From assembly GCA_032718475.1 (NCBI GenBank), contig JAUCBJ010005107.1, positions 1 through 45,519 on the forward strand: a stretch of 45,519 bases of DNA, given 5' to 3'. The stretch comes from Nemertoderma westbladi (lineage: Eukaryota; Animalia; Xenacoelomorpha). A program made the position numbers and the translations under genes. Of this stretch, positions 11,230-44,523 are shown one piece after another. The stretch's first letter is position 1, and each line of letters starts with the position of its first letter. The notes under the pieces were generated by a model that searched no databases, was not told where the DNA came from, and saw only the letters and a list, made by a program, of their open reading frames with translations.

Positions 11230-12044
11230 ATCTGCTATATATGAGTTTATCCATATTATAATGAGTTTATATTTAGGCGAGCGGGCATCGCTGCCTACCC
11301 CAATCAACCCCGGACAGTACGAGATCCTCAGCGCCGATGTGTCGTCGCCGCTGTACTTTCGCCAACGACGTAGCCGCACAACAACAACGACAACCGACAC
11401 AAGTCACTCGACTGTCCGTCCCAAAGACTTAGATGTACTTCAGGTTTTCCTTGGAGTTAGGTTACTTTTACGATTGCGACTAGCTACTGTAAACACACCT
11501 TAGTAGTAACATTCGCCTATAAACTCACAAGTACCACACACACAACTTGTCACAAATTACACACACTCGGGTCACTTGTCCGTTAGTCAATGCCTTCCAG
11601 AATGTCACTGTATTATTATGTATCCTTGGATACTATCAGTGCACTATTTATTCCCTATGCTATTCAATGGGACAAGCTTTCTATTGTTCTTTTAACTCAA
11701 TTCTAATTCTAGCGTGGTTGTTGCTATGGTGACATTATGCAAAGCTAGCGGTAGAATTAGGGTGATTCCAATGCATACAGATCTGGGATGTTATTTAATA
11801 GTAATTCTTTAATAGTCAATGTCCTGTTTATACATGACTTTACGAATTTTATCGGCTATTAACTATGTTTGGGAGACTTTCGTACACGCATACGCATAAT
11901 AATATAAATCTCCGCTCCCTTGATCTATCAATTTATGGAATTTTGGGAATGTTATAAATCGCGTAAAATGGCAATTTATTAAATTCATTAAAAGACATGA
12001 ATTTAAATTTATTCCCTGAAATTTTATTATTTGATAATTAAATG

Positions 12045-12360
12045 GACATATTTTGATTCTAGAACTTGTCTAGGGACACAAGATCCTTAATTCTAAGAAA
12101 ATTGTCTCTTTAAGAATATCGGTAAATGCTGCGATATCTTAATTGACTAGAATTGTTGAAGGATCTGAATTTTACAGATTTTGACTTATTTGATTTGTAA
12201 ATATTAACTAATTAATATTTGAGATGGGCACCGATTTATTCCAGAACTTGTCTGGGGACGTTAACCACTGATTCTATAATTTGTCTTTCAAGTATATCGG
12301 TGGGTGCCACGATATCTTAATCGACTAGAATTACAGATGGTCAAAGGGTTTAACAGATTT
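12045..12360. repeat. Diverged ~182-bp tandem duplication inside element 1
   Basis: agaacttgtct...gatatcttaat(t/c)gactagaatt...acagatt occurs at 12061 and at 12243. Confidence 0.75.
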
Positions 12361-12876
12361 ATTTTGCGTTATACGCTACTGTTAAAGGGACATCACGCTA
12401 CTATATGTATTATTTAATATACGGTATGAGAGCAATATCGCACGAAGCAATGTCAGTGTGAAGAGGCAAGTCGTTTCCAAGGTCTACCCAGAGCTTGGTT
12501 TAGCCGAGACACGAGGATCTGAACTTTGCATTCCTAATACTCTGCCTACCAATAATACTTAAATATAGTAGTGGCTTTATTGTACTTTAATAAGTACGGA
12601 CATTTCATCTTACTGTAGTCACGTATTTATAATATGATACGGACAGTAAGGAAAGAGGAAAAGAATTATTTCTTGCCGTCGCATTAAATATAATATATAC
12701 GTAATTAAGTAATAAACGCGAATATATATTGCACTAATCTACTAAATAATCGCTAAAATAATATTCTACTAAATTAAATAAAACGATTATAATAAAATTA
12801 CATAGTAATACATACATAAATATAAAAATAATAGAATAATATAAATAATAGAGTCACACACCCACTCCATATGTTG

Positions 12877-15800
12877 TTACGTTATGGAGTCCCTAGATGT
12901 TTGAAGGATTAGGGAGGTGGTCGTGGGAAGAGAATCTTGCCTTCCACAGTTTCCGGAGAGTCCTCCCTTCCCTTCCGATAAACACAAACGACCGACTGGG
13001 TGATTGAGTCGCTGCATCCTGAATACAATTCCAGGTTTCCTCTTCGTCCTGGAATAGTGACGATAGAAACATCGCTCAAAGTAGATGACGGCGTCACAAA
13101 GCCGATTCCAGGAGCTATAGTGGTCCGTCGCTCTCTGCAGGAGAGGTGAGAGTCCCTGCGAGACGTCTGATGTTCCAGAGCTCCAATCGCTCTCTCTGAT
13201 CTTCATGAAGGATCCACTCGCGGTGGGGAGGCCCAGATCCACGGCGTCGTCCCTGGCAACATGTAATACCGACAGATCTATCCCGGGTTCAAATAACTCC
13301 GATCCACACGTCCGGGTTTCAGGTTCGACTTTCTCCGCTCCCTTGGCTGGTATAATCTCAGTCGGAGTAAGATGGGGAGGCCATTCATTCTCCTTACTCA
13401 GGAAGTCGGGTTCACCTAATCGGTCTGTAGTATCTGTCAGTTCTTGAGGAGTTGCTCCTCTGGAAGCGATGTCCGTTGGATTAAACTTCTTGGGGCAATA
13501 TCTCCATTGATCTACATTGGAGCTAAGATTGTCATTATCTGAGGAGTGTGGTGTTCCCTCAGTTGGGTCGTCTCCCTCACTAGTATCATCTTCCCATTCA
13601 CTCATCTGGCAGACGCGATCTTGAAGCAGTCTTTCCCTGAGCGTTCTACCGGAAGGTCCAGTAAGGTACCAACCTACTCTAGTTCTTACCGCATAGGTCT
13701 GTAGTGGCTGCGGTTGAGCAGGCCGTTTCTCTAATGTCTCCAGCGCCTCATGCGCGTTTTGGCCGATGAGTATTTGCACTCCAGGATAATCAGTCTGGAA
13801 TCGAGGTATGTTAAGATGTTGGATGCTCTCATCCTCTTCCCAATTATAAAGGTCTGCTTGAGTAGTAGCGAAGTTCTTTATAGCCACCATTTTCACTGAC
13901 CTTATGCTATGTTCTCCTAGTTCGTCCTGGGGGGTGGACAACGCGCCTACATAATAATCAGCTGTTACTGTAGATTTCCAAACTTGCATGATTCCTGACA
14001 TGTTTAGCTTGGTTCGGAACTTGGGTTGTCCAGCAAAGATGACTTCGGCTAGTTCTTTATCGATGAATGTTCCTGTGCTACCGGAGTCCAGGAGGGCGTT
14101 CACTATATAGCTCTTCTGAGGTCCGTGGACCCGTAACTGGACTACAGGAAATTCTCGGATTCCTATATTGGAAGTTGGCGCTTTCCAAGATGGTTGTTGA
14201 TCTGAAGTAGTTAGGGTGAGGTCGCTGTCTGTGTCTTTCTCATACATGAGTGCTCGATACACTGCGGTGGTGTTTATTAGGTAACAGGATTCGTTTTGGT
14301 CGGAGAACTCGTCCGTATAGAATCCTTCCATCTCAGATTGATCAGTGTCGTTCACATCACTGAATTGGACATGTAGTTCGGACTCACTTACCTGACTCGG
14401 GCTGTTTCGTTCGAATTCCGTGTGCAACAAGATATGATGTTTTGCGCCGCACTTTGCACACCTTGCGTCGGAGTTACAGGTTCGCCGTTGGTGTCCTCGT
14501 CTGAGGCAATTATAACACAACCGCTTATCCCACATGATTTCACGTCTATCCTTTAGTGATTTCCTCAGGAATTTATCACACGCATTTAAACGGTGGGGCC
14601 CGTCGCACAGCACACATTTCGGCTTGATGTTACTTACTTTAACCTGTGCTATGTGGTGCACACTTGTTCTTTCCTCGGGCTTTCTCACCTGAATTCTTTT
14701 AGGAGACGTAGGAAGGGTTTTTTGTACCGGTTCCCTTCTGTCATTGGGTCGAGACTTGGATTTACTTACCTGATCTTTAGGCATTTTATTGACATAAGAT
14801 CTGTCAGTGTCTTTCCCGCTGTCCTCTCCTTGAGAAGTTTGGCTTTCACCTTCGTCGGTATAACATACTGGTGTTACCCTTCTCCTAGAAACGGGTTTCT
14901 CACTTACCTTGTTTTCCAATGTCTTCTCTCTGGACTGCCTTAGGAGCTGTAATTTCACTTCTCCATCTAAGAATGACATGAGATCAGCCATGGTAGGGTC
15001 TCGTCGTTGTTGTTCCATCATATATAACACTTTCTTATCCCAGCGTGTACCTACTCCACCTTTCGGTAAAGTAGAAGCCACTGCTCTAATAACCATAGTG
15101 TTCTGATACTCATGAGACTTACCTAGCCAATCTAATTGTCTGCAGATCTCCTGGATCTCATCGGAAAACTCGATAATTCCGCTACTAATAAACTTTCGGG
15201 GCGCTACTAACTTTGCATATAAGTATCCAGCGATGTTATTCCTATTACCATACCTGATGTTTAGTGTATCCCAAACTTGTCTTAATCCGTCTGGATGTCC
15301 AATAAACTTTAATGCCATTAACTTGGGAGATCCTTCCAAGCACTCGATGAGGTATCTAAGTTTTTCTCCATTAGATAGTACCGAGTTCTGTATGTTATCT
15401 TTGTAATATTCATTAAAAGGTAACCATTTCATCTCATCCCCATTGAACTTGACGATCTCTCCAACCTTTACCGCTTGTCGGGCTTCGGTTCTAGCCATTT
15501 GACGCGTAAAACTTTCTTGGGCCATTGTGCTATTTAATATCGAGTTATCGGTATATAAATTCCTCGGATTAGGATCAGTTCCATATGGAATATCATTACA
15601 AACAGGTCTATAATTACCCTTAATAGGGTTCACTATAGGAGTTTCTACTTCGCTAGCAGTATATATGCGCGTAGGCTCCACACCTTGCGCATGCAATACT
15701 TCAGACCTAACAGGTTGACACATTGTTACAGAGGGTGGTGGTATACCCTTTTGGGTGTTTACTAATTTGTCGCGTTCAAGCGCGATACTTTGCTGCACTT

Positions 15801-17007
15801 CTTGCAACTCTGGCAACTTCAGCCTACTTTCCCTTACTGTGCCCTTGAATTGCTGGACAGTCTCCTGCATCTGCCCGAGCAGGATATCCATCCCCCGCCG
15901 TCTCTCGTCCACCCATTCGACCGCCGAAGCGGGAGTCGCCAACGTTGTAGCGGGCGGACGAGGGACAACGGGCGACAAATTGTGAATATTTCGCTCGGGG
16001 TCCAGGACCTGAACTGTCTCTTGGGCAGTTCTGCGGGGCACAGGTAGCTTAGTGCTATGCAGAGGGAATTTAGAGGTAGTTTCAGGGAGCACATGTGCGT
16101 CTATCACCGAAGGGGTGATTTCAAGAACAGGCCTAATTATTTCAGGCTCATCTACTATAGTAAGGAGTCTTTCTATTTTAATTATTTGGTCTGCGGGCTC
16201 TGTACTACCTACTTTGGTGTTATTTAGTTGCCTTCTAACAGCTGGAGGCAAATCAGGCAATTTCTGCCGGTGGAATGTTCTTTTACGTCTGCTTTGACGA
16301 GATCTATTTCCTTTGCCTTCAGTATCGGTGGTATCGCCTTCTTCAGATGATGTATATCCCTGTCTTTTGGGAGTAGATCGATTCATCATCTGCATATTAC
16401 TAGCTGTTAACTGTTTACTGAAGTCGTCTTGCTTCTCTTGAAGCGTTTCCAACTCCAGTTGGGCGATCTCTTCAGCCGCTCTCCGTTCTGCTTCTGCTGC
16501 TGCCGCTTTTGCCTCTGCCGCTGCCGCTTTTACCTCTGCCGCTGCTTCTGCTGCTTTTGCCTCTGCCTCTGCCTTTGCTACTGCCGCTTTTGCTTCTGCT
16601 GCTTTTGCCTCTGCCTCTGCCTTTGCTACTGCCGCTTTTGCTTCTGCCGCTGCTTCTGCTGCTGCCGCTTTTGCCTCTGCCTCTGCTTTTGCTGCGGCCT
16701 TTCTGTCTTCTATACGTTTTTTCCTTACTTGTTCTTCTTGGTCTCTAGCGATGCGGAGTTGTTCATCGAATTTAGCTTGGTTCGCCGCTAACCTATCCAC
16801 ATCAATCGCATCTAACACAAGTTTGGCTCCTTCGCTATTAGGGCTAAGTCCCTCTAGCCTTCTCCTCAACTCTTCATCACCTAAAAAACGTTGATAGTCT
16901 GACAGATAAATGTCAATGGCATCCCTCTTATGCGGTTTCTCTGCTGTCACTTCGCTCTCGGTTGTATCTAGTAGACTGTCTGACAGGTTCTGCTTAGTAT
17001 CAGACAT
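12877..17007 (-). CDS. gag-pro: BEL/Pao Gag-protease polyprotein fused to an RNase H C-terminal remnant (RT and integrase absent)
   Basis: 1376-aa ORF with an Ala/Glu/Lys repeat and a DUF1759-type capsid region (KFNGDEMKW...EKLRYL). Three BEL-type Cys/His knuckles (CVLC..H..C, CYNC..GH..C, CAKC..HH..LH). Protease LLDSGS. BEL RNase H end motif WRYCP..NPTDIASRG. No YxDD or DDE. Confidence 0.93.
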   Translation of the reverse strand: MSDTKQNLSDSLLDTTESEVTAEKPHKRDAIDIYLSDYQRFLGDEELRRRLEGLSPNSEGAKLVLDAIDVDRLAANQAKFDEQLRIARDQEEQVRKKRIEDRKAAAKAEAEAKAAAAEAAAEAKAAVAKAEAEAKAAEAKAAVAKAEAEAKAAEAAAEVKAAAAEAKAAAAEAERRAAEEIAQLELETLQEKQDDFSKQLTASNMQMMNRSTPKRQGYTSSEEGDTTDTEGKGNRSRQSRRKRTFHRQKLPDLPPAVRRQLNNTKVGSTEPADQIIKIERLLTIVDEPEIIRPVLEITPSVIDAHVLPETTSKFPLHSTKLPVPRRTAQETVQVLDPERNIHNLSPVVPRPPATTLATPASAVEWVDERRRGMDILLGQMQETVQQFKGTVRESRLKLPELQEVQQSIALERDKLVNTQKGIPPPSVTMCQPVRSEVLHAQGVEPTRIYTASEVETPIVNPIKGNYRPVCNDIPYGTDPNPRNLYTDNSILNSTMAQESFTRQMARTEARQAVKVGEIVKFNGDEMKWLPFNEYYKDNIQNSVLSNGEKLRYLIECLEGSPKLMALKFIGHPDGLRQVWDTLNIRYGNRNNIAGYLYAKLVAPRKFISSGIIEFSDEIQEICRQLDWLGKSHEYQNTMVIRAVASTLPKGGVGTRWDKKVLYMMEQQRRDPTMADLMSFLDGEVKLQLLRQSREKTLENKVSEKPVSRRRVTPVCYTDEGESQTSQGEDSGKDTDRSYVNKMPKDQVSKSKSRPNDRREPVQKTLPTSPKRIQVRKPEERTSVHHIAQVKVSNIKPKCVLCDGPHRLNACDKFLRKSLKDRREIMWDKRLCYNCLRRGHQRRTCNSDARCAKCGAKHHILLHTEFERNSPSQVSESELHVQFSDVNDTDQSEMEGFYTDEFSDQNESCYLINTTAVYRALMYEKDTDSDLTLTTSDQQPSWKAPTSNIGIREFPVVQLRVHGPQKSYIVNALLDSGSTGTFIDKELAEVIFAGQPKFRTKLNMSGIMQVWKSTVTADYYVGALSTPQDELGEHSIRSVKMVAIKNFATTQADLYNWEEDESIQHLNIPRFQTDYPGVQILIGQNAHEALETLEKRPAQPQPLQTYAVRTRVGWYLTGPSGRTLRERLLQDRVCQMSEWEDDTSEGDDPTEGTPHSSDNDNLSSNVDQWRYCPKKFNPTDIASRGATPQELTDTTDRLGEPDFLSKENEWPPHLTPTEIIPAKGAEKVEPETRTCGSELFEPGIDLSVLHVARDDAVDLGLPTASGSFMKIRESDWSSGTSDVSQGLSPLLQRATDHYSSWNRLCDAVIYFERCFYRHYSRTKRKPGIVFRMQRLNHPVGRLCLSEGKGGLSGNCGRQDSLPTTTSLILQTSRDSIT

Positions 17008-19212: not shown

Positions 19213-19225
19213 ATATATCCTTTAA
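19213..19225 (-). other. Primer-binding-site position lacking TGG; complementary to an LTR-internal 13-mer
   Basis: Minus strand after the LTR reads TTAAAGGATATAT. The LTR minus strand carries ATATATCCTTTAA at 19995-19983. Confidence 0.6.
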
Positions 19226-20461
19226 TGTTCGCGCTTTCAGACCTTTGGCAGTTTAACCCACCAAATTAAGATGTCTTCTAGATATTAAATCTGTTTTTAG
19301 TCTATGACAAGTATTTGATTCACTACACTAGTCGAAACCAATCTGTGCGCGATCATTCACCCGCTGGATATTCCCGGGAGATTGGGTTCGACGGTTTAAT
19401 TTTATTGCTATGTAAGCCTAATGTATTATTCGAATGACAGTATTATATAATCTCTGACAATATTATTTACCTTCGGTAATATTAACAGTTCCTTTAGGAC
19501 GTGGCGCTTTATCTATATAAACAGAGTTATGACTTAAACTACTCACAACGATATGGCTTAATTATAATTCACATATATGGCGCATTCTTTAGGAATTGCT
19601 TCTTTAACAGACTCACTCATACACAATGCTGCACAATACTGCACACTAATCTGCCAATCTTCACTGATTTTAGTCACATATAAAAGGAACACAGGCTGAC
19701 TCATGTAGGGTCTATCAAATAACATTAGATTCACTTCAAACCACTTCAACATAAGTCACAATCGTTATTGGTAACCTTTCTCTCTTACCTTCGGTATATC
19801 AAGAATATTGGGTTTCGGGGTTATTTATCGTTATTCCAAATATAATAATTCATCAACCATATTATGAAGAACTGACAGTAAATAGCAGTATAAAACAACA
19901 ACTGAACACTGATTGTTACGAGTTTGCAATGTTTCAGCAGTCAGGATGTATGATCAGTCAGCAGTCCGCAGTAGTCGTTAGGTTAAAGGATATATGCCCT
20001 TTATAATTAAACCTACTAGTGTAAGACTAAAAAACAGTAAAGCACAAAATACTTCCAAGCCGTTCTTTCTTTGGCTCAGGACTGAATGTAAACACTGCAC
20101 ATAGGCATTGCGTCATTTCTCGGAAATTTTCTGTACAAGGAGCCACAAAAACGCTCTAATTGGCTGACTGAACTGAGAGACGCCGTAGAACAAAGGAAAT
20201 CAACACGTATGAATGTCAGCTGTTAACCGTAGTCATAGTAACTACTGTTCAAGAGTAGCTATCACCCCTTTGCGTCACGAATTGCCATAGAATCATAAAA
20301 TATGCCTTTCACAGTACACATACGGAGGAAATAGGTCTTAGATCCTCTAAAAACACCGATACAGCAATAATACGGTCTCTTACGCTTATTAAATCAACTA
20401 CAGAGTATTTTAATGTAAAAGATAATAAAAATAACGGGGCAATTCAGCAAAGGCTTTTACA
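19226..20461 (-). repeat. 5' LTR of element 1
   Basis: Direct repeat of 8631-9866, upstream of the gag ATG on the minus strand. Confidence 0.97.
19996..20170 (-). promoter_or_regulatory. Candidate LTR promoter: CCAAT box, TGACGCAA (CRE/CEBP-like) site and TATAAA
   Basis: agccaat(t/c)agagcg and aaatgacgcaatg are conserved in the same order in the otherwise diverged LTR of element 2 (25115-25175). Confidence 0.55.
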
Positions 20462-24640: not shown

Positions 24641-24944
24641 GGTTACCATGGACCCCACCCTCTCTACCGGCCTATATGAGGTCCTGTCTCCCCCTCCTGT
24701 TCCCGCTACCATCAAGGGATATACTACTGTATTTAACTTTTTTAATTTTATTTTCTCATTCAGTTTCGTTTGTCCTATATTAGATTAGATCATCTTGTTA
24801 TAGTAAATAAAACAAATAAATAAAATACTTACTGGTGGTCAAACTGAAACCTTCTCGTCAAATGTGAATGGGTCACTATAAATTCCAAATCTTGATGTTT
24901 TATCACTTAATTAAATCCAGTGTCAATATCCTTTTGAGTGAAAT
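24641..24944 (+). repeat. Copy B of the duplicated segment (empty site for the solo LTR; target of element 2)
   Basis: Contains a single AATCT at 24888-24892 where copy A has AATCT-LTR-AATCT. Confidence 0.88.
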
Positions 24945-26040
24945 TGTAAAAGCTTTTGCGGACAAAATAAGTCATTTTGAGCAATGCGCTGAAATACTCT
25001 AAAAGACTTATAAACTTATGCAACTACGCGTCTGTCCAAACTCAGAGCTGAGATGACGAAATCTACCAGCTGTTTCTTTGTGTAAAGGATCTGTGTTAGT
25101 TGTTGATATATTTCAGCCAATCAGAGCGATCTCCCTTTACCTGTGCTCTGTAGCCTATGTAAAATGACGCAATGCGGCAAATTTATCAGAATTAATTCAT
25201 TCTGATTTTCTGGCTCTGTTCTGACTTCGCCCGAAAAACATCAGTGGCTTGAGATGGGTCATAAGAACGCAAATCTATTAACAACAAAACACTGCATTTC
25301 ATACATTTCAAACGTATCAAACTTTCATATTATACCACATATCATCGCAATTCTGAATTCTGATACTGCAACACTGCTGTTGCGCCGCTAACACCGTTTT
25401 TTACTGTTTTATACTATTATTAGCTGTTGTTATATATTAATGGATGTTATATTTGGAGAATACTGATGAATAATCGTTAAATCCCCCTGAACTTTCTTAA
25501 TTACTGAGGTAAGCAGAAGGATGTATCAGTAGCAATTGTGGCTCAATTTATAGTGGTCTGTATGAATTTAATGCTATTTCATAACCTCAAGGTATGTGAG
25601 TTGCAATCCTCCTTATATATGACTAAAATCGGTGACAGTCGGCAAATCAGTGTGTGTTAGTGTGATTATTGGTACAGAAGTTGAGTGTGAAGGTTAATAA
25701 AGCATTCCTAAAGAATGCGTCATTTGCAAAATATCACGGCCACTCATTGTAATTAGTGTCAGACATAACTCTGAGTGATACTTAAAGCGCCACGGCCCAA
25801 CGGAACTGTTAATATTTCCCTGAAAGTAAATATAGTTGCTGGAGATTATATAGTAGTGATCAATCGAATAATACAAAATAGCCTACTCATCTCTCTACAA
25901 AAGAATCCAGTCTCCCACACCCGTGGGTCATACGCCGTGCTAGACTGGCTTCAGCTGATGTCAATTAGTACGGGCGATTATCAACTCATAAGACACTTAA
26001 ATTAGCAGGTTAAACTGTTAAAGGTCTAAAAGCGCGAACA
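24945..26040 (+). repeat. 5' LTR of element 2
   Basis: Termini match the reverse complement of the element 1 LTR ends. 25272-25571 is repeated at 37623-37929. Confidence 0.9.
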
Positions 26041-27813
26041 TTTATAGATTTTCTCTTTTTATTGCTCAGTAGGCAATAAACCCTACCGTACCGGTCGAAT
26101 GGTAACCTAGGCTCAGCGGTACCGGTCCGGTACCATATAGCAGTATTACTTCGATTGTGAAATATTGTATATCGTGGGCTGTTAGAGAATTAGGGATTGA
26201 TCACCCCTTATTTCTTGTATGGTTTACTTATTTCTGTTGGCTTTATTTATCTGTAAGTGTAGTATCGAGCAGGCTGAATTACAGGCTCATAGGCTGAATT
26301 GTTGCCTGATTGTTGTTAGGTCTGAAGTGGATTACAGTGTGTGTAGGTTATTTGTCCAATAAAGTGCTAGTTAGGAAGTGGTGGCTTCCAAAGTTGTAAG
26401 GTAAATCCCCCTCTAAAGAATAAGTCGTACTACGTAGTCTAGAACGCTTACTAACTAACAATTTTGGAGACTGCATATACTGTGGTTTATTTTAGGCTTG
26501 GCGGTAGTCTGTCAGCATTTTTGGTCTGTGTTTTGTTTAAATAGTCTGTACAGGTAGCGTAATATTATTATTCAGAGTTTATGCAAGTAATTTATACCAT
26601 CATGTCACCAAGTTTATTCCTTACAGTAATTCTGCTTGTTATGCATACCGTAATAGTTATAAATTAACCCCGGTACTACTTCAGGACTGCTTGGCATAGG
26701 ACAGACTGGTGATTTCTTTAGCATCGGATGAGTAAGCCTAAATACTCCGGTCACTCCAGCAGATGCTGTGGTTCTTTTAGCTGTTCACGTATATTTAACT
26801 GCAAGTTATATGTTGTATAAGTGCTAGTATCTAATCTAGGGTTTAGAGTACAGCACTTTCCTGAAAGTTAATTTAGTGTGTACGCAGTATATTTGTGTTG
26901 TAACGTGGTTAATAGGTCTGTTAGCATAGGCTTCGATAATTAATCTCTAGGTATAGGACACTCTGGGTACGTTTGTTTATAGTGTAGACTATAAGCCGTC
27001 ATACGGTGGCATTTCCTTATCTGGACAACACAACGTATAGAATACTACTTTATTGGTTTCAAAATTCCTAAATTCCCTATCAGTCTGTAAGAACCAGAAA
27101 TTCAAAATTTTTGTTAGTCTGGTTTGTAAAATTCTTGTAAAATTACCCTAAAAAATTGTACATGTAACTTTGTTTATTGTTTGCTTAGAGATTGTGTAAT
27201 ATCAACCCGATACGTAAGTAATTTGTAGTGATAAGTAACTTAGTTAATTAGAACTATCAGTATTTAGTGTCTAACAAGTAGCACTCCACTGAGAGCGTCA
27301 AACCTCTGTGTAGTGACTTCGTACTCAGAAATAATAACATCTATTTCAATAATTGACAAAACCCATTACGGGTACATATATATTTGTAAATTTAACTCAA
27401 TCAGATTTATAAATTAGTAGGCCTGTTAGAATCAATTAGGTCTTAATATCAGTTGAACCTATTGCTTAATATCAGTAATAGAGTAAAGGGGAAATAATTC
27501 CTAAAATCGGATATAATCAGTTATTATTTAATTATTGATAATATCGGTGTCTACAGTAAGCTTATTATACATTTATATAACTTAGGCTAAACCCATATAC
27601 CGGCATTCAGTGATTAATATCAGTCTGTATCTGTAGTCTTAGTAATACTGTTATATATACTATAGAGTGTATACTGGTATTATAACACTTGTTATCTACC
27701 CACGTTACATTGAGTAACAATATTTGGTAACTATAAGACTGACAGTTGATAATGATTTACCTTAGACTTACTTTAACTGTTGTTATAGTGATAGGCATTC
27801 AACTGTGATAATT

Positions 27814-30800
27814 ATGTCTGATCCAAAACAGATACTTTCAGATAGCCTCTTGGGACAGACAATCTCTGACCCAGATCAAAGTATAGAAAGGACCCGACCG
27901 AGGTCTAAGTCCCCACCTACTGTAAGAAAGGCCATCCCTACAGTAATGGTGTAGGACCCTAGGTTAGTGGAGCACCATAGGTCTATTATAGGCACTAGCT
28001 AAGTTAAGTTAAGCTAAGCCAAGTTAAGCGAGACCAAGCGACGGCTGCAGAACAGCGGCGGCACCCTGACCGGGAATTTATCTCTAAACAACCCTGTGAC
28101 CCTAGTTCCAGTACCGAAGAGTTAACGCCCGAGACTGGTTCATGGATGGAAGAGGTGGTTTACTCTGACCCACTCCTGATTATTCCTGGGGTAGTGCTCA
28201 CTCGAGTTCTTCTAGCCATAGAAAGAACATCAAGCGGACTGGACAAGAAATAAGCGGTCAACCCCGGATACCCTCTCGAGGAATTTTAGTCTATTGTGGA
28301 AACTCAATGGAACTTTCCCGGACACGGACTACCATTTAACTTCTCAGAAGCTGCCTGGAAAGACCTACATCAGATGGGCATAGTTCGAGATACCAGAGAT
28401 CCCGCTGTAGGGAAGAGGTCGGCAGCCGGATATGTCCAGGGATTCTTCAACTCCTTAGGACAAATAGAAACGCAGTTACTCCGAGGGCAACTGGGACCAC
28501 TCGAGCAGGGAGAACTGCTATATCAAGTAAGAGAATGGATACTAAGGATTAGATTATATTAGATCAGTGTTCAAAGAAGCTTCAAAGATAAGTCAAGAAA
28601 CATCACTACAAGTGTCAGTAAAGACCTGGTTCCAACGAGTCAATGTTAAAGTCCAGGGAACAACCAAGTGGTAGGCTCAGTTGGCAGAACAACTAGTCTA
28701 CTGAGAATCCACGATGCAGTCACTTCTCATGGGGAAAGCAACGCAGTATCTGAAAAACCTCCGAAAAAAGATGCTATTGACATCTATTTATCTGATTACC
28801 AACGATTCATAGGTGACAAAGAGCTAAGGAGACGTCTAGCGGGACTTCACCCCAACAGTGAAGCAGCCAACTTAATCCTAGACGCATTGAATGCTGTGAT
28901 GCAAGCGGCAGAGCAGGCTAAAATAGATGAAAGCGTTCTCATCGCTTTAGACAAGGAGGAACAAGTAAAGAAAGGATTAATAGAAGAAAGGAAAAGAGCT
29001 GCCGCCGCTGAAGCCGAACTTAAAGCTGCAGCAGCAGAAGTCAAATGGAAAGCTGCAGCGGCAGCGGCAGCGGCAGAAGTCGAACTGAAAGCTGCAGCGG
29101 CAGAGGTCGAGCGGAAGGTTGCAGCGGCAGCAGCAGAAGTCGAATAGAAAGCTGCAGCGGCAGAAGTCGAACTTAAGGCTGCCACAACAGAAGTTGAAAG
29201 AAAGGCAACTGAAGCCAAAGCATAACTAGAGTTAGAGACCATTCAAGCGAGACAAGATTTCTTAAGTAAATAAAGGGCAGCGACTCAAATGCAATACCTA
29301 AGTCGATCTACCCCTAAAAGACATGGATTTAATACCTCCTCGGACGAAGGTACTACCACTGATTCCGAGTGTAGAAGTAACAAATCCCATTCAAACGGAA
29401 GTAGAAGAGTGCCCCTAGGACATAAGTTACCTAACTTGCCCCCCCCCCCTCCCCCCCCCCCCCCCCCGTGAGAAGGGAATTAGCTAGCGCAGACTTAAGA
29501 ACTGGAGAGTCAATAACTCAAGTTATACAATCAATACTATAATGGATGAGCCAGAAATAATTAGGCCTGCTATCAATAGTACTGCTTTAATGGAGACCCC
29601 TTTGCTGCCTGAAAACAATTCTGAGTTCCCTTTACACAGTACCAAACTTCCCTTGACCAGTAGACAAATACCCGAGTCCCGAGGTATGGAAACAGAACGC
29701 AAAATGTTCTGGAAGGGACTGTCCCCTGTAGCCCCGATGAGTCATCCAGCTACTACATTGGCGGCTCCCACACCTGCGGTTGAGTGGATGGAGGAGGGGC
29801 GGCGGGAGATGAGAGAGTTGCTTGGGCACTTAGCCCAAACAAAGGCCCAATCCACTGAGCAAGTCAGGGATTTGGAAGGAACTGTCAAATTATTAAAGGG
29901 AACAGTATGGGACAGTAAAATAGAGTTGCAAGAAGTGCAGCAACACATCGCTCTAGAGCACGATAAATTAGTAAATATACAAATGGGTATACCACCACCC
30001 CCAATAACGGTGGTATCAGCCCTTTAGGCCTGAATTACCTCATGCGCAAGGTGTGGAGCCTACACGCATCTATACTGCTAGTGAAGTAGAAACTCCTATA
30101 GTAAACCATGTTAATAATATTAATAAACCAGTTGATAATGATATCCCATACCGATCTGATAATAATCCAAGAAATTTATATACCAATAATTCGATATTAA
30201 ATAGTACAATGGCTCAAGAGAGTTTCACGCGTCAGATGGCTAGGATGGAAGCTCGTCAAGCTGTAAAGGTGGGAGAGGTTGTCAAGTTCAATGGAGATGA
30301 GATGAAGTGGTTACCTTTTAATTAATATTACAAAGATAACATACAATACTCTGTACTATCCAACGGAGAAAAACTATGATTCCTCATCGAGTGCTTGGAA
30401 TGTCCTCCCAAGTTAATGGCGTTAAAGTTTATTGGACATCCTGATGGATGAAGACAAGTCTGGGATACACTTAACATCAGGTATGGTAATAGGACTAACA
30501 TAGCTAGATATCTGTATGCAAAATTAGTAGCACCCAGGAAGTTTCCTAGCAATGGGATTATAGAGTTTTCCGATGAGATTCAGGATATCTGTAGACAGTT
30601 AGACTGGTTGGATAAATCTCATGAATACCAATGTTCTATGGAGGTAGGAGCTGTAGCGTCAACTTTGCCAAAGGGCGGAGTAGGTACTCGTTGGGACAAA
30701 AAGATTTTATACTTTATGGACCAACATCAGAGAGATCCAACCATGGCGGACATTATGTTGTTCTTAAATGGAGAGGTAAGATTACAGCTAATTAAACAGT

Positions 30801-31310
30801 CTAGAGAGAAGACTCCAGAAACCAAGATGAGTGAGAAACCTGTTGCTAGGAGAAAGATAACACCAGTATGTTATACTGAGTATAAGAGTCAAACGTCCTA
30901 TGATGTGGACAGCAGCAAGGACACCGAAGAGATTTATTATACGAGTAAAGGTAAGGACATAGGAAAACCCAAGGTTTGACCTAATAACAAGGGAGAACAA
31001 CTTAGAACTCCTCCTACGTCTCCTAAGAGAATTCCTGGTTGGAAGACTGAGGAAAGAACTCATGTACAAAACACCATGCATACAAAGGTAAGTAACATAA
31101 AACCTAAGTATGTATTGCGCGAAGGGCCCCACCACTTAAGTAGGTGTGAGGAATTCTTAAAGAAAGAACTAAAGGATAGGCGTAGTGTAACTTGGGATAA
31201 AAGGTTTACAACTGCCTCCAGAGGGGACATCAAAGGAGAACCTGTTACTCCTATGCGATGTACGCTAAGTGTGGAGCGAAACACCATATCCTACTGCACA
31301 CCGAGTTTGA
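27814..31310 (+). pseudogene. gag: gag1, degenerate homolog of the element 1 Gag
   Basis: Starts MSDPKQILSDSLLG and includes DAIDIYLSDYQRF, PTRIYTASEVETP, QESFTRQMAR, PKGGVGTRWDKK and CAKCGAKHHILLH-like blocks. Many stops and frameshifts. Confidence 0.92.
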
Positions 31311-32439
31311 TAAGGTACGCGACGCGAGTCAACATACGACGGAAGATGCTGGACGTTATATCAAACCACCGATGTCCGAGGCGCAGCTTAAACGTGAATT
31401 GGACTATAGAAAATTCACGGCACGCTATACGTATCGCAATTGTACATATATGGACTTCTTGACTACTGGTTATCCTATCGATTTACACAATGCGGACGAT
31501 GTGGATACCGAAAGGGAGATGATTTTATTTAAATATCACTCGCAGCGGAGTTGGAACGACAAACTGAGAATCGAACATGAAAATTATATTCGAAACCGAC
31601 TTGAAAGAGTAGATGTTGAAGAACCAGACAAGCGTACTAACTTTTACAAATATTTAGAGTTCCTGAGAGAAACTTATCTCAATGTAGCTAGTCAACAAAA
31701 TCTAGAAACTCGATATCCACAAGGTATACATCCTAATCCTATGATGGAACTTAAACAATTGTATTTTACATGATATATCTTACCGCTAATTGACCCCTAC
31801 CTGTTATACCGGATAGCTTCGAACAGATGGAGGAATATTATAAAACGGGAGAAAAGTCGCTAGTGTTTCCTTTACAAGATGTGCGTCTTTGGTATTACTG
31901 CGATGAATGCCCTAGACCCAATCAACAAACGGAATGCCATAAACACCCGCAGAGACGTTGCACTAAACATAGTTTCACTCGCTATACTTACGGGAGTTTT
32001 GAGCGAAACCTGTTCGACGTTGCCACCCACGCTCGCTCGACTCAAACGATCCTTAAGTAAACCTTTGATCAGAGTTCCGGAATACTTGGTCAGACCTCCT
32101 TATTCCCCAGTCCGACCACAGACTCTCGACCCTAACAGTATGACAGACCCTCCTGAGTTGTACTCGTTGTTCAAAGATCTGGTGCTACCCGAACAATTAG
32201 TCGGTGGCACTCCTGTTGTGGGCTCCTTGGATATTTGCCCATCCTACCTAGCCGGATTAGAACGCAGACATCTAATATCTCCGTTCAACCCATATAATCG
32301 TCCCGGTTTGACTCCAATACAACCTGTCACCGAGGTGGAGAAAAGTGTCATACGGAACGCACTGGACGCAATTCGGCAAAAGATCGGAAAGGGAACCTAT
32401 GATTGTTTAGACAAATGTAGACTACATGGACTACAGTAG
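31311..32439 (+). pseudogene. Unknown accessory ORF fused in frame to the last gag1 knuckle
   Basis: ORF 31258-31773 runs from HHILLHTEF directly into EDAGRYIKPPMSEAQLKRELDYRKF. Homology to 10280-11160 (minus) continues to about 32430. Confidence 0.7.
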
Positions 32440-32688
32440 ACGGTGGGGTCGTACTCCGGGAGATTGCCATCACCCCGGAGAAACACAACCTGATGAAATA
32501 TACCACACACCGGGAGAGGGATACAGAGTGTACCGGTACGAGGATGAAGACAGGAGAGGGGATCTGAGAGAAACTTCCCATCGGAACTTAGCTGCCGATT
32601 GAGAATATGGTAGTCACGGGGAGGCCCGACAGGTGAACCACACCCAACAACAAAAGAGTCTGTATTCCTACCATCGAGCGCGCTGGAA

Positions 32689-35600
32689 GTGCAAGCGATG
32701 GGAATGGCAATACTCATCGACGCGCTGAAGACTAGGGTCGAGCTGCCGCCAGTGGAGCCCTTCAAGTTTGATGGGAGTAAGCCGGAGGAATATCTGCAAT
32801 TCCGGCGTATGTACAGCAATGAAATCTTAACGAAAAACCTGACGCAGGTGGAGTGCCTTAAACATCTACAAGTCTACACAGGGGGGCCAGCATACGACAT
32901 CATGAGACAATACCAAGGTATTGAAGGAGGATTCACGACTGCATGGCGAGCCCTGGACAGGGAATTCGGGCATCCTGCGAAGATTATCCGACAAACCTTA
33001 AGGGGAATAACATCAGGCGGACTTCAGGACAACCCTGTCAGCATCAAAACCTTCGCCAACAAAGTAGAAAAGGCGCTAATAGTATTAAAGACCCTGGATG
33101 CACCTTACGAACTCAATGCATCAAACAACATCACTACAATAGCGCAGGCACTGCCGATCTGGCTGAGAAACAAGTGGATTAAGATCGCTTTCTCCACCCG
33201 AGAGAGGAATGGTGCGGAGCCAGGGCTGGAGGAAATGTGGAACTTCCTTCACTACGAAGCGGAAATCATCACAGACCCAGTCTATAGTGAGGACAGTCTC
33301 GGTAAGGTACTGAAAGCGGAATGCAGCCGATCTAAACGAGAACATAGTTCGGCGGATGCGCTATACAAGGAACGCTACAATCCCAATTACAAATCTCAAT
33401 TGCATAGAAACGGGTTCCACAAGACCATAGACTGCAAGCATTGGCAGGCGTTACTTAAACAATATCGGGCAGCCTACACTGGTAAGAATGGACTATGTCA
33501 TCGATGCGTGGTAGGAGGGCACAGATTTGCCGAGTGCAAGGAACCTCCAGTAAAATACGACGAGGTTGATGGAAATGGAGGCTAAACGATGGCGACAAGC
33601 ACCACGGGAGCGAAGAAAAGGGGAATGGTACTACTCGGTGAGGATAATAGGAGAGGATGAGCTGTCGGTCACGACGCTAATGTTGGTCGACAGCGGAGCA
33701 GCGTTCACACTAGCGGAAAGTTGGGTGGCCGAAAAGATAGGGTTGCGGACGAGGCCAAGCAAAATGGCAGTAACCACCATCTCGAGTAAGGATGATGTCT
33801 TGAGGATGAGAATGGTGCATTCCGAAATATCAGTGATAACACCAGGGTGCGATTATGGGGCTACGATCGATCCCATTCAAATAATATAATTGATTAATAT
33901 AAACGCCAGGCAGCCCACAAAGATCGAGGTCGAGCAATACCAGTACCTGGATGAGAATGATTTCTCCGTACCCGAACTGGACGTCCCGAAAGTATCTCCC
34001 ATAGTCGGCATGGATTGCCTGACAGCCCACGAGAGACTACGGACCGTATTCGGCGAGGATAGGGAGTGAGACCCGATGGCGATTCTCACGCCATTCAGAT
34101 GGACGCTCAGTGGCCCAATTAAGACCAGAATCCCGTTTTATGTCGGAATCCTCAGGGTGCATGTTTTCGGGCTCAATGAAGGAAATGGAGGATGAAGGAG
34201 CAGAGGAACAACTCAAGAGGCTGCTGCGGCAGGACTTCGAAGGGTTGAAGGAGACTGGGGTCGGGACCTCGGTGGAGGATAAACAGGCGTTGGAGAGCGT
34301 GAAGAACTCGATGAAGTGGTAAGGAGGGCGGTAGACCATAGGGATGAAATGGAAACAACTGAAGTTGCCGCTACCAGATAACAAGAGGATGGTCTTGACG
34401 AGGCTCCGAAAGTTGAAGCAGATACTCAAACGGAGCCCCGAAAAAAGGATGAATACATCCACAAGACGTTTAAGAAGTATGTGGACAGAGGGTGGGTGGT
34501 GGAGTTGCCGGTCGATGAACCTATTTGCTATTTGCCACTGCATATGGCTTTGGATCCTAAGAAGGGCAAACTAAGGATGGTGGTCAACGCGTCGGCCAAG
34601 ACTAATGGCAAGAGTCTGAATGACTACCTGCAGGAAGGCCCCAACATTTACAACTCGAGGATAGAGGTCCTGTGGGAAAGCACGCCTTCACGTGCAATAT
34701 AGAAGGCATGTTCAACCAGGTTCGAGTGACAGAGGAGGACAGCGATAGTCAGCGCTTCCTGTGATACAACGGCGATGAAGAACCGTCGGAGATACTGATA
34801 TACAAGATGGTAGTGCAGAACATGGGGGCCAAATCATCCTTGTTCACTACGACTACAGCTGTGAGAGACACGGTGTAGGGTAAAGAGGGAGAATACAGTG
34901 AGAAGGCGATCGACATGATTCGATGCGGATTCTATGTGGACGATGAGATAGGATCTGGAAACACGGTTGAAGAAATACTCGACGTGTACGGTGCGAAGTT
35001 CGCGACATACTAAAAGGATTGGGGTTCAACCTCACAGAATTCCAGTCCAACTCCGAATAATTTATGGAGGCCATAGAAGATAAACAACCAGAGACAATGA
35101 TAAACAAACCTACAACAGCAAAGGGGCAGATTATGGCGGACAAGAGGATAGAGTCGCAGCAGATGGCACTAGGGATCGTATGGAACTGGGAGATGGATGA
35201 GTTGGAGTACCAGGAGGGCGCCGAAATCCATACTAAATGAGGCTCTGTGTCATACATAGCGAGGATTTATGATCCCCTAGGCCTGGCATCCCCGTTGTTA
35301 GTCATGGGGAAACAGATATTGAAGAAAGTGTATAAGTTGAATGATGATTGGGACGCGGAGATCCCGGTGGAGATAAGTAGACAATGGGACAGTGTTTTCC
35401 GACGCATCCTTGGAAGCATATGGAGCGGCACTTTATTTGGTACAGTGAAAGGGGGCCCATAAGCCCAGGCTTGTGTTTAGTAAACCGAGGTAGATGCCAC
35501 CAGATTCAGCATCAGTGCCAAAACTCGAGCTAATGGCTGCGAGATTAGGGCGACAGCATACTTGATGGAAACTATACCGAGTATAGTACTACTGTCCAGT

Positions 35601-37489
35601 ATACTACTGGACAGATTCTATGGTAGTATTAGGGTGGCTACATAACGAGAAGACATGTTACCCTATATATGTGGTGAACAGGGTGGACGAGATAAGGGTG
35701 ACAACAGATCTGGAAAAGTGGCACTACTGCCCAACCGACTACAATCCAGCAGATCTGCTATTGAGGGGCATTGTACGCCATGCTTTCTCGAGAAAGCAGG
35801 AGTTGTGGCAGCATGGGCCATACTTCCTTAACGATAGGCCGAGTTGGCCACCAATGAGGAAGGTAGACCCAGGTACAGAGGAAGTAACAGTAGAGGAGGA
35901 GTGAGAGGAATCGGAGGGGGAGGAAATATACAGCCAATTGTCGAGGGAGATTAAGGAGGCGCCACCATAACTGAAACCGAGAGAATCATGTGGCAACCCA
36001 ACAGATAGGTTGCTCAGTTACAGCTCCAGCTGGTATAAGACTAAGAAGCTGGTAGCATATCTGAGGGCCTACAGAGATTTCCTCAGGGGAGTTGGTAAGG
36101 ATAGCAAAACGAGACCCACTATCGATCTGGAAGGGGTGGCCAAAGCCGTGATACGATACGAGCAAAGGAAGGGGTACGAGGACGAAGTGAACAGCGTCAG
36201 CAAGCAACAATGCCTTCATCAAGACAGCGAACTCAACGCACTGTCGCCACACAATTGGACGATGATGGGATCCTGGTGATGAATTCCAGGGTGGTAAACA
36301 ACAACAGCCCAGTCATTCCACCGAAACCGATAATAATCCCCAACAAGTCACCAATAGTCTACCAGATCATATGGGATTCCCATAAATCTATACTACATGG
36401 GGGTACTAACCAGACCCTGACAGAGATCCGGAAGACGTTCTGGGTTATCCAGCTCAGAAAGATGGTGAAGGCGGTAGTGAGGCAGTGCCAGACCTGCCGA
36501 CGGACGAAGAAGGTGAGGGCCATATAGGACATGGTGCCATTACCAGCCAACAGGGTGACGCATCACGAGCCACCATTTACACACTGCGGCATGGACATGA
36601 TCGGGTCGATTAAGATAAAGGTGATGCGGCATATGGAGAAACGCTACGGCATTATCTTCGTCTGCAATAATACTAGGGCGGTGCGGATAGAACTAGCCAA
36701 GGATGCTACGGCATCGGCATTTATTAATGCACTAGAGAGGTTTGTAACCTGCAGGGAAGGGACGGTTGAGGTATTATATTCAAACAATGGGACTAACTTT
36801 GTGGGCGCAGAGAATGAGTTAGCCGAGGCCCTCGACATTCTGGAGGGAGATGATGTCAGGGTGGCAATGAGGAAACACCTTATAAGGTGGGAAAGGAGAA
36901 CACCATATGCGCCACATACATTAGGCTGTGTGGAGCGGCTTGTGGGAAGCTCCAAACGACTATGACCAAACTGATGAACAACCACATGGTCACGGAGGAC
37001 GTATTGAGGACGGTGTTAGCAAAATGTGAGGGGATTATTAATAGCCGACTGCTATACCCCAAGAATGACGACCCAGAATCACTGGATGTCCTCACACCAG
37101 CACACTTACTCATGGAGAGACCAGCGACGATTGACATGCGAAGTGTGGATCCAGATGATATACGTTCGCGTCAAAGTTGGAAAGTCGCCAAGGCAATAAG
37201 CGCAGAGTATTGGACAAGGTGGATACAAGAGTACCTCCCAACACTACATAAGAGGAGTAAATGGAGGAACAGTCACAGGGAACTAAAGAAAGGTGACTTG
37301 ATAATTGTCACAGATGACACAATTATCAATAACCAGTGGAGACTAGCTAGGGTAGTAGAAACCTACCCCGACGAGGATGGAAGGATTAGATCCGTGGAAG
37401 TAAGGATCGGAAGAAATATAGGGGCCAAAGAAAGGAAGACCTACAGGAGGGTGGTAGGAAAGTGTTGCCTATTGGAAGGGTCGCCTTAG
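32689..37489 (+). pseudogene. gag-pol: Second BEL/Pao gag plus pol (protease, RT, RNase H, integrase), disrupted
   Basis: Capsid LPPVEPFKFDG...; knuckle CHRC..GH...C; protease LVDSGA. RT YLPLH...KLRMVVNAS...SLNDYL..GP and YVDD (34933-34944). IYDPLGL and WHYCPTDYNPADL. Integrase H..GG...CQTC, PFTHCGMD, SNNGTNFVGA, and C-terminal WTRWIQEYL...DGRIRSV. Confidence 0.93.
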
Positions 37490-37622
37490 AGTTGAGTCGT
37501 CCAAAAAATAAAATAGTAAGCAAAATAATAAAATAAGTACTTAGTACCAAGGTACGCTGTATTTAGAGGGGGGGGGACAAAGCCCCCCCCCCCCCCCCTC
37601 TTTTAACAACCAACTATATAAC

Positions 37623-37929
37623 AATCTATTAACAACAAAACACTGCATTTCATACATTTCAAACATATCATTTCATACTTTTCATATTATATTACATATC
37701 ATCGTAATTCTGAATTCTGATACTGCAACACTCCTGTTGCGCCGCTAACACCGTTTTTTACTGTTTTATACTATTATTAGCTGTTGTTATACATTAATGG
37801 ATGTTATATTTGGAGAATACTGATGAATAATCGTTAAATCCCCCCTTAACTTTCTTAATTACTGAGGTAAGCAGAAGGGTGTATCAGTAGCAATTGTGGC
37901 TTAATTTATTGTGGTCTGTATGAATTTAA
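37623..37929 (+). repeat. Partial 3' LTR of element 2
   Basis: Aligns to 25272-25571 with scattered differences. Preceded by a G-run/C-run and cut off by the Gypsy fragment. Confidence 0.88.
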
Positions 37930-39770
37930 AGCAGTAAAAGCGACCTCAGACGAGGACAAACTATCGCTCCTTACAAACTATGTTTCTCATTCTATTTTTG
38001 ACTACATTTCCGAGATACACGGAAACAATCTTCATCTGAAACACTGGATGAATATTTACAGCAACTGCGTGGTCTGAGTAAAAATTGCGCTTTTAAAGCT
38101 GTAACAGCGGAGGTAAACCAGGATGAACACATTCGAGACGCATATATTTCTGGTTTGTCATCCAACTTGATACGCCAACGTCTTCTAGAGAATACAACTC
38201 TCGACTTAAACACTGCCTATGAACAGTCACGAACCCTTGAACATGCTTTAAAATATTCGGAGGCTTACAATTCCCAGCCAAGCGGTGCAGTAGGCAGTTA
38301 CAGTCTGGCTCTGGCTCCAAATCGTTATGAAGTTTCAAGGGATTACAGCTTGCCCAGTATTGGTCGACAAGATCTTGGTGATTCAGGAAACGATCCTCCA
38401 AACACATCGGCATCTGTAACAGTAAAGAAATGTTACTTCTGTGGTGGTAAACTGCACCCCGGAGGACGTGAATCGTGTCCAGCTAAACATACCGACTGCC
38501 TCAACTGTGGAAAGACTGGTCACTTCGCCAAGGTTTGTAAGTCTCAAAGTAAGAAGAAACATGGTGTTTCTGCCTCTGCTTCTGCTACTCTGGCTACTAT
38601 CGGTGCTCCAACCTGCTTATCGGGGAGTTTAGTTGATGTTATGATTAAAAAGAAACCGTACAAGGCATTGATCGATAGTGGAAGTTCTGAAAGTTTCATT
38701 CACCCTAGTATTTTGGGTAAACTTACTGTGAAGAAAGCAAACTTTGACATTAACATGGCTACAGTTTCTGAAACTAAGAAAGTAAATGGTTTCTGTGAAG
38801 CCACATTAGTGATAAATGGACAACATTATAACAAGGTTAAATTAGCTGTACTGCCTGATCTTTGTTGCGATATGATTCTAGGTAAAGATTTTATGCAGCG
38901 CCATTCAAATGTGGTATTTTCTTTCATTTCTGAACCCAGGGTTCATTTTGGGAAAATTGTTGCAAGCTGCCCAGCAAAAAATACCACAACTGATACACTT
39001 CCAGAAGCAACTCTTGTTGCACAAAGTTTATTCTCCAATCTTCAACCTAACTGTGTTCCCATAGCAACCAAATCTCGTCGGTTTGGACATTCAGAGAAGG
39101 ATTACATTGCTAAGGAAATTGATAAACTTCTGAAGGATCAAGTTATAGAACCCAGTTCATCACCATGGCGAGCTCAAGTTCATGTTGTTCCTGAAACGGA
39201 TCATCATAGACGCCGCTTTGTTGTTGATTACTCTCAAACTATCAACAAATATACACAACTTGATGCCTAATCCGGTTCCCCGTATAGATGATCTAGTCAA
39301 TGAAGTATCAAAGTACAAGTTCTATAGTTGCCTAGACCTAAAAAAGCGCATATCCTCAAATTCCTATTCCTAAAGAAGAAAGACTTTACACTGGATTCGA
39401 GGCAAACGGTTCACTGTATCAGTATACACGTATACCTTATGGGGTAACTAATGGTGTATCTGTATTCCAACGAATTATGGATAACTTGATAAAAGAAAAC
39501 AATATCAAGGCTTGCTTTGTCTACTTAGACAATATTACAATCTGTGGTATGACACAGCAAGAACATGTTGACAATCTCAATAATTTCCTAGAAACTGCCA
39601 GGAAGCACAGTCTTACTTTCAATTTCAGTAAGTGTGGATTTTCCAAGAATTCAATATCTATGCTCGGGTACGAAGTTTCTCTTGGTTCACTTAAACCTGA
39701 TCCTGAAAGGTTGGAACCTCTCAGAAACCTTCCTCTTCCTACAAACAATAAAGCCTTACAGAGGTCGATT
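37930..39770 (+). mobile_element. Ty3/Gypsy internal fragment (gag, protease, RT), disrupted, no LTR visible
   Basis: Knuckle CLNCGKTGHFAKVC, protease LIDSGS and ILGKDF. RT PSSSPWRAQV...DYSQTINKYTQLDA, PYGVTNG and VYLDNI. Contains a stop and a frameshift. Confidence 0.9.
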
Positions 39771-40237
39771 GTGTTCAATGTTCTTTTATGTTAATAACGA
39801 ACCTGCCTATTAATAGGCCAGGGCAGTTCTTGTCAAGAGTTGAGCCGTTTAAAAACACGATGTGTGTGGTTGTGTGTGTATAACCATCCAATATCTCAAA
39901 AACTCAAGCAGGTACGCAAAAATTTTCATAACAAACTCTCCATAAATTTTGGTTGCGCACAAGACTGTATATTTTTTGTGGAGTTTCGATCACGGGGTCA
40001 CTGAAAAATAGCGGTTTTGAAAATTTAAAGTCGAATTTCACCGATTTCAACTCGTCGAGTATGCACCAACTTTTTTATTTGAGATATTCAGTCATCTGAG
40101 CAACATATTTGAGCCTCAGAATCTTTTCAAATATCGCCAATCTCGCACAGAACGTCGCCAAAATTTGTTAGTCCGGCAAAAAAACGCACAAATTCGTCTA
40201 AAAGAGTAAATTATTTGATTGCAGAATAATATGATTC

Positions 40238-42710: not shown

Positions 42711-43442
42711 GGCTATAAAATGAGTGTTTTGCTACGTCATGTGGTAATCAATTATCGACAACAACCACAAACTATTAAATTTAGTGTCTTTTACAACAGG
42801 CGCATATGGAATTCTATCTCATAGTCTAGTCTATAAATCATGGAATGTTTTGGCACAGGCATAGTGAAACCAACTGTCCGACAGACCAGAAATAAACAAA
42901 TTTTGAATGTTTTGGCATAGGCATGTTGAAATCAACTGTCTGACAGTCCAGAAATCAGCAGTCTGACAGTTTGAAGAAATACATACATAAAAAGTCATTA
43001 AAAGGACAACAAAAGTCATTAAAAGGACAACAAAAGTCATTATGCACAATTCGTAAAAAAAGGAGGACAAAAAAAGTCAAATAAAAGGACATAAAAAATC
43101 ACTGCCTTATTTTAATGATTAAATTAATTATAAGCAGGGATCGCACACGTACAGTCAGACATCAGTAGTTACTTTTTGCGGTGGTGGTATGGCTTTGCGG
43201 CGGTCCTACGAATTACCACTGCCTTAGCGGTGTATACCGCGGTAGCGCGGTAGCGGTAACTTGGCTGCTTGGTGTGCTTTGGCCAGTACTGCAGTAGGCA
43301 GCCCAGACTGCATATTCCCCTTACAGCCTTATTCTGATAGCCTCTAACAGTATAACAATTCAGATTATTCCATATTCCATATACATATATTAGACTTTTA
43401 GGCCCTACCGGTAGGCGGTATATAATTTAGCAAAAAGATACA

Positions 43443-44522: not shown

Positions 44523-44523
44523 T

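Follow-up and report, generated by a model that had tools for sequence, protein, structure and literature searches.

A candidate self-primer in the long terminal repeats of two BEL/Pao-type retrotransposons from Nemertoderma westbladi

Retrotransposons bounded by long terminal repeats (LTRs) carry their primer-binding site in the bases directly after the 5' LTR, and where the 3' end of a tRNA is used this site is required to begin with TGG. For the BEL/Pao elements, the profile of the International Committee on Taxonomy of Viruses (ICTV) describes an 18-nucleotide (nt) site for tRNA-Arg or tRNA-Gly and a genome of 4.2–10 kb (PMC8742986). One fly BEL/Pao element has been reported with a tRNA-Tyr site (in an excerpt of PMC4580426), and, according to the available part of PMC3601003, the superfamily is confined to metazoans. 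For Tf1 self-priming has been demonstrated, and for Tf1/sushi, Tcn1 and the TAR copias of plants it has been predicted (partial text of PMC6317226); the same text gives a rule for plant TAR, Houba and Osr-1 elements, namely that 10 or more bases starting 0–5 bases past the LTR have a complement within the LTR. The subject of this analysis is a 45,519-nt stretch of Nemertoderma westbladi DNA (contig JAUCBJ010005107.1, hereafter the window) containing two related BEL/Pao-type elements, element 1 (E1) and element 2 (E2), in which the bases past the 5' LTR pair with a motif inside that LTR and the motif probably serves as the primer.

The window is repeat-rich animal DNA, and a comparison with itself identified the two elements in opposite orientation together with one solo LTR. 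E2 opens with a 5' LTR of 1096 bp bounded by TG...CA (24945–26040, plus strand). Its primer-binding position (26041–26051, plus strand) starts on the first base past the terminal CA and is complementary at 10 of 11 positions to 25271–25281 (plus strand; LTR position 327–337), the candidate self-primer and the best partner within the LTR, the runner-up reaching 8/11. An earlier note on this DNA had claimed these letters and places, and all of them were confirmed. The context it gave for the motif, about 100 nt past a landmark, also proved correct: the motif is preceded by GC, ends in TTAA-C and begins 106 nt after TGACGCAA, the corresponding distance in E1 being 120 nt. E1 lies on the minus strand (20461–8631, 11.8 kb) and has a 5' LTR of 1236 bp (19226–20461, minus strand). 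The 13 bases at its primer-binding position (19213–19225, minus strand) pair 13/13 with LTR position 467–479 (19983–19995, minus strand), of which a second copy is found at 9388–9400. In both elements, the pairing begins at the first base after the LTR.

The TGG that starts a tRNA-type site is absent at this position in both elements; E1 has none in the 125-nt leader read and the first TGG of E2 is 60 nt past the LTR. ARAGORN identified no tRNA genes in the window and Rfam had no matches in it. No splice-junction partner of at least 9 bases was found for the E1 or E2 site, and the partner in E1 and E2 is therefore contiguous.

Of 10,000 dinucleotide shuffles of the E2 LTR, 577 reached a 10/11 match somewhere, and 20 did so no more than 25 nt from where E1 would place the motif. 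The shuffling test suggested in the earlier note is thus weak by itself when the match may fall anywhere in the LTR, and favorable near the predicted place. The 13/13 match of E1 was reached in 1 of 10,000 shuffles, and its motif window (−13.9 kcal/mol) is well separated from the next (−7.1 kcal/mol). Among 1990 11-mers of the E2 leader, 39 have a 10/11 partner in the LTR, with the true site counted. The E2 pairing alone is marginal; its position and E1 carry the case.

When the 11 pairs are compared between E1 and E2 in register from the LTR end, seven are identical, three are changed on both sides and one is changed on the post-LTR side only, which is the mismatch of E2; none is changed on the motif side alone. 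The claim that both partners had changed with pairing kept is therefore borne out for three of the 11 pairs. Counted from the LTR end, the motifs have their 3' ends at 757 and 759 nt; their starts are both 770 nt away, an equality regarded as partly luck given the intervening indels. The two motifs are taken to be equivalent in position because they have a similar distance to the LTR end and because sister copies of both E1 and E2 diverge right past the motif.

These sister copies come from nine sequencing runs listed, six of which hold a matching stretch. Only contigs were used, four runs being compared with E1 and two (X1 and X3) with E2; contigs cannot connect the motif with a binding site 760 nt away, and one run is possibly the source of the window. 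At the E2 mismatch position, the pairing base accounts for 18,104 of the 18,468 depth units from the 39 contigs of X1 and for 11,980 of the 12,182 from the 30 contigs of X3, about 98% overall with sister subfamilies pooled, and the mismatch is therefore private to this copy of E2. One X1 contig runs from the LTR end into 11 fully complementary bases. No variant at any E2 motif position was present among 40 of the 50 variant rows (threshold 35%), and the four bases that open the binding site are its least variable part. Of the joints listed, 10 of 15 in E2 start at 25280–25284, the 3' end of the motif, and the bin containing the motif is a local peak of depth (197, 435 and 63 in X1; 202, 272 and 65 in X3). 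In E1, position 19982, which directly follows the motif, is where two of four joints and one loose end are listed; a deep contig of run X5 ceases to fit E1 at 19994, the second base of the motif. Since the pairing is anchored at the first post-LTR base, shows three two-sided differences and is completed at the mismatch in sister copies, these sequences are much more likely to form a functional RNA duplex than to match by chance, and the preference of the earlier note for such a duplex over an AT-rich coincidence is supported. The duplex is most likely a primer duplex, as its post-LTR partner lies where a BEL/Pao-type primer-binding site would be expected.

The predicted local structure of the RNA leaves the binding site unpaired between two hairpins in both E1 and E2. 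The hairpin near the LTR end has seven pairs in E2 (26002–26021, plus strand); four of the seven differ between E2 and E1 and still pair, one by a two-sided and three by one-sided changes. The hairpin past the binding site (26058–26080, plus strand) presents a YAG acceptor-like site in its loop and AATAAA in its 3' arm, and E1 has the same layout, including AATAAA in the 3' arm. The hairpin regions of the two elements have z-scores of only −1.0 and −1.6, the latter for a 96-nt region of E2 and not significant alone. RNA folding was calculated from nine start points per element. For an RNA starting at the motif, the mean pairing probability of motif and site is 0.94 in E1 and 0.52 in E2, and for an RNA starting 100 nt upstream it is 0.001 and 0.0, respectively. 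Transcription initiators follow a YR rule, and the first base of both motifs is the A of a CA dinucleotide, which resembles an initiator.

Distant BEL relatives provided a further test as well as controls. From 246 related metagenome loci, scanning with the integrase end retained 80 at 30–40% identity; those examined were 33 with 3.2 kb or more upstream (L010 qualified and was left out), and a paired LTR was found in 16. Eight of the 16 are tRNA-type, their TGG starting no more than 3 nt from the LTR end (L006, L051, L059, L065–L068 and L072, the end of L051 being set by its TGG site), seven pair with their own LTR over 10–13 nt, and L002 is in neither class. Five TGG-type loci tested against their own LTR reached 7–8 of 11 only. 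Among the self-pairing loci, L018 has a contiguous partner, 13/14 from offset 2 (1 of 2000 shuffles). The other six, which represent about four families, find a partner only across a GT(A/G)AG...YAG intron of 71–727 nt in the LTR. The partner built in this way is 10 nt in L013, L015 and L016 (0 of 300 shuffles for L015, 1 of 300 for L016), 11 nt in L026 (0 of 100), 13 nt in L048 (0 of 100) and 11 nt in L058 (1 of 100, post hoc); in the last three loci there were 32, 6 and 7 CA sites, respectively, from which the LTR end was picked, and the shuffles allow for this choice. The spliced partners in the six loci end 5–8 nt into the downstream exon. A CA marks the start of the pairing stretch exactly in four of six cases and 2 nt off in two, and does not do so in L058. 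L058 was at first classed as tRNA-type from a TGG and was placed on the tree described below under that label; this assignment was dropped once the locus had clustered with the self-pairing ones, and its 11-nt spliced partner was found post hoc at a later CA. The contig of L048 starts exactly at the acceptor.

A tree was calculated from 20 integrase pieces, all of them BEL sequences and without outgroups, that represent 12 of the 16 loci with near-copies left out. E2 falls in an eight-row group holding all six self-pairing loci that were included, together with L002, and the five TGG-type loci are outside it. The pol region of E2 may or may not belong naturally with its LTR.

By analogy with Tf1, the LTR motif rather likely pairs with the primer-binding position and primes reverse transcription instead of a tRNA. 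The RNA would begin at or just before the motif, which would fold onto the unpaired binding site about 760 nt downstream between the two hairpins. An autonomous partner would probably supply the RNase H for a cut right past the motif, which would free a 3' end. DNA copying could then proceed through the LTR to the cut and jump to the 3' LTR, restoring the motif. In retroviral reverse transcription, plus-strand synthesis copies the primer into its binding site; the same step here would write a change in the motif into its partner, so that one motif mutation would enter both and account for the matched changes. The term 'compensatory', under which these had been described, may be the wrong word, because templating of this kind gives matched changes without two separately selected mutations. 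Self-priming would also lead one to expect copying errors and subfamily exchanges to accumulate one base past the motif, where the joints are concentrated, and, with an uncut template, at the motif start. A broader proposal, that a whole branch within BEL/Pao is self-primed and represents a third independent origin next to Tf1/sushi and the plant TAR copias, with a primer built by the spliceosome in many families and one that is ready-made and rewritten each cycle in E1 and E2, is offered tentatively, its chances being put slightly below even.

Several observations weigh against self-priming. The predicted folding is erratic with respect to the start point (0.03 at −20 and 0.37 at −30 in E1, 0.05 at −2 in E2). 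The E2 duplex is weak as it stands (−5.2 kcal/mol), and five other windows of the E2 LTR equal or beat the motif when paired with the post-LTR 14-mer (−6.0 to −7.6 kcal/mol). The motifs resist alignment: MAFFT offsets them by about 40 columns with the surrounding segment unaligned, and pairwise alignment joins TTAA to TTAA in one of seven parameter sets only, and the equivalence in position asserted earlier rests on distance to the LTR end and on the divergence of sister copies, not on alignment. The figure of about 98% pools sister subfamilies that share the LTR end, and nine bases further along the depth at the E2 site has dropped from about 18,000 to 621 in X1, and stands at 424 in X3. The joints derive from related copies and are not independent. 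The thirteenth position of E1 differs in nearly all other copies (287,609 of 288,319 depth units in X1, among the rows listed), and the duplex of the E1 family would thus probably be 12 pairs. E1 has a TATAAA 10 nt before the motif start that, as a TATA box, would place the start of transcription just after the motif. The support for the tree group of E2 is 87/85, unstarred, and the E2 branch is long (1.6).

The rival that survives best, though an unlikely one, is that pairing falls to the 3' copy of the motif; with a transcription start site just past the motif or a poly(A) cut at its end, the RNA would carry the motif at its 3' end only, and that copy would either prime after trimming or circularize the RNA. 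The TATAAA of E1 ends 17 nt before the 3' end of the motif and could be a TATA box or a variant poly(A) signal, and the divergence of sister copies right past the motif fits an RNA 5' end there equally well. No poly(A) hexamer occurs at the same place in both LTRs, and the hexamer of E1 is not kept in E2. The spliced partners of the six relatives span an intron and end shortly into an exon, which would be an improbable place for a poly(A) site. Also against a 3' copy, the 3' LTR piece of E2 (37623–37932, plus strand; 11 mismatches in 303 aligned bases against the 5' LTR) opens on the second motif base and not past the motif, the 10 motif bases it retains being those of the 5' LTR. The abrupt start of this piece may mark an RNA 5' end or a DNA deletion. 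It has no U3 and is preceded by a stretch of G-runs and C-runs (37490–37623).

Less probable again is a regulatory RNA switch, in which the duplex masks a branch-point-like stretch and tips the balance between spliced and unspliced RNA, the primer being an unseen tRNA fragment or other RNA. A candidate splice-donor-like AG/GTAAG (25507–25514, plus strand, in E2) is common to the LTRs of E1, E2 and the solo element, and in both E1 and E2 a T-rich tract is followed by the YAG acceptor-like site in the hairpin loop, 27–29 nt past the LTR end. The putative introns (25509–26069, plus strand, and 19788–19199, minus strand; about 560–590 nt) would excise the binding site, whose first four bases vary least. 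None of the E1 joints listed matches the proposed LTR intron, which has no bearing either way on splicing. A switch would leave unexplained that the duplex starts exactly at the first post-LTR base, where the 3' end of a primer must lie, and that the letters pairing at this position in the relatives are quite different; each subfamily would also need its own unseen primer. A splice switch can coexist with self-priming. The last alternative, that the pairing has no function, being a chance product of AT-richness in E2 or a passively retained old inverted duplication, draws on the 577 shuffles, on an E2 duplex that is not the most stable in its LTR and on motifs that do not align reliably, and it is very improbable and largely refuted by the E1 match and the three two-sided differences, by the sister copies that pair at the E2 mismatch, by seven distant loci with the same geometry where tRNA-type controls lack it, and by the expectation that a passive duplication would decay and not change in step.

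The remaining anatomy of the two elements may be considered next. E1 is flanked by a 5-bp target duplication, and its 3' LTR (8631–9866, minus strand) has one difference from the 5' LTR in 1236 bases; its family is young and abundant. ORF1 of E1 (12877–17007, minus strand) encodes a gag (DUF1759), a protease-like region and a remnant pol stretch. BEL-type Pfam domains are present in 26/26 of its protein matches, which are distant (22–48% identity over local stretches). Since neither a reverse transcriptase nor an integrase was seen in E1, it is likely non-autonomous. No relative of ORF1 was found in viral contigs, and a DNA pattern of the LTR end had no matches in metagenome, genome or viral contigs. 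Relative to E2, E1 has about 3.3 kb of extra sequence (11145–14411), in which the protease and the pol remnant continue the reading frame of gag and are followed by 1.7 kb of AT-rich DNA that contains a 100-base repeat.

E2 is at least 13 kb, decayed, and has two gag regions. The first (28707–31314, plus strand; DUF1759) is interrupted by stops and frameshifts, in pieces 49–81% identical to E1 ORF1. The second is followed by a fragmented pol (32614–37489, plus strand) with the domain order DUF1759, aspartyl protease, Integrase_H2C2 zinc finger, rve integrase core and DUF5641; two pieces tested from the reverse transcriptase/RNase H stretch matched no Pfam family. About 1.1 kb of coding-like sequence between the gags (31319–32419) is also in E1 and has no Pfam match. 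The second gag-pol has no separate flanking LTRs, and would be either a nested element with lost ends or a captured pol.

The solo LTR (5157–5850, minus strand) belongs to the same family as E1 and E2, is flanked by a 5-bp target duplication and has lost the motif region through an internal deletion. It and E2 inserted independently into a duplicated host segment (4895–5912 and 24641–24949), about 50 bases apart and in opposite orientation, and from these paired insertions a target preference of the LTR family is possible. A C2H2 zinc-finger-like frame with internal 168-base repeats (5913–6581) adjoins the duplicated segment. Beyond the cut end of the E2 3' LTR is a Ty3/gypsy-like gag-protease-reverse transcriptase stretch (38002–39794). 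An unbroken 281-residue TCP-1/CCT chaperonin frame (43431–44276) runs into a 33-base tandem repeat (44184–44555) that reiterates its last codons. Tandem arrays of 68 and 19 bases are present at 42030–42722 and 833–1229, respectively, and the 68-base unit occurs again at 605–693 and inverted at 7250–7383.

Compared to known systems, E1 and E2 are BEL/Pao-type (Belpaoviridae, Semotivirus) as judged by their predicted proteins; a fit to the ICTV description is not claimed. They share with BEL/Pao the DUF1759 gag and, in E2, a protease before the integrase and DUF5641 at the integrase end, together with TG...CA LTRs and the 5-bp target duplication (E1 and the solo LTR; the 3' end of E2 is cut). 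They differ in having no 18-nt tRNA site, in their lengths of 11.8 and at least 13 kb, and in the two gags of E2. Of the BEL/Pao polypurine tract, which is about 10 nt long and precedes the 3' LTR, E1 has eight bases with one pyrimidine, and the U3 boundary is missing in E2. Among the matches listed in the full-text literature, with subscription papers, Repbase and GyDB entries and supplements outside this scope, there was no report of BEL/Pao self-priming; a word look-up of two BEL/Pao surveys (PMC3118150, PMC554778) found no primer-site terms, and the available parts of PMC5443660, PMC3286476, PMC5445492 and PMC4558846 added nothing on it. BEL/Pao replication has been held to be tRNA-primed by assumption and is 'poorly understood' in the ICTV profile (PMC8742986).

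With Tf1 and Tf2 of S. pombe, Tj1 of S. japonicus, Tf1/sushi and Tcn1, E1 and E2 share a primer site complementary to the element's own LTR. The geometry is that of Tf1, in which the 3' end of the motif pairs with the first base after the LTR. Tf1 reportedly requires a stem-loop beside its primer site, and its primer is said to be retained. The Tf1/sushi elements have Ty3/gypsy chromovirus proteins, whereas those of E1 and E2 are BEL-type; E1 and E2 are thus not members and the likeness is one of mechanism only. In contrast to Tf1, the loop from partner to site is about 760 nt in E1 and E2, and the distant BEL relatives build the partner across an intron. For the plant TAR, Houba and Osr-1 elements of Ty1/copia, self-priming was inferred from the same kind of evidence in the partial text cited above. 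E1 agrees with the TAR rule as worded there and E2 does so only with one mismatch. The plant elements belong to another superfamily and another host kingdom. The fungal GalEa copia elements likewise have no tRNA site past the LTR and a conserved hairpin there, but no LTR partner was found for their site according to the available part of PMC5445492, whereas the LTR partner of E1 and E2 changes in step.

On this reading, E1 and E2 would be a case of an established mechanism in a superfamily for which self-priming is not known. If true, this would be the third LTR superfamily with self-priming, and tRNA priming would have been replaced repeatedly; it would also explain how filters based on primer sites miss such elements, which may be freed from the host tRNA supply and from control by tRNA fragments. 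The proposed mechanism specifies exact RNA ends.
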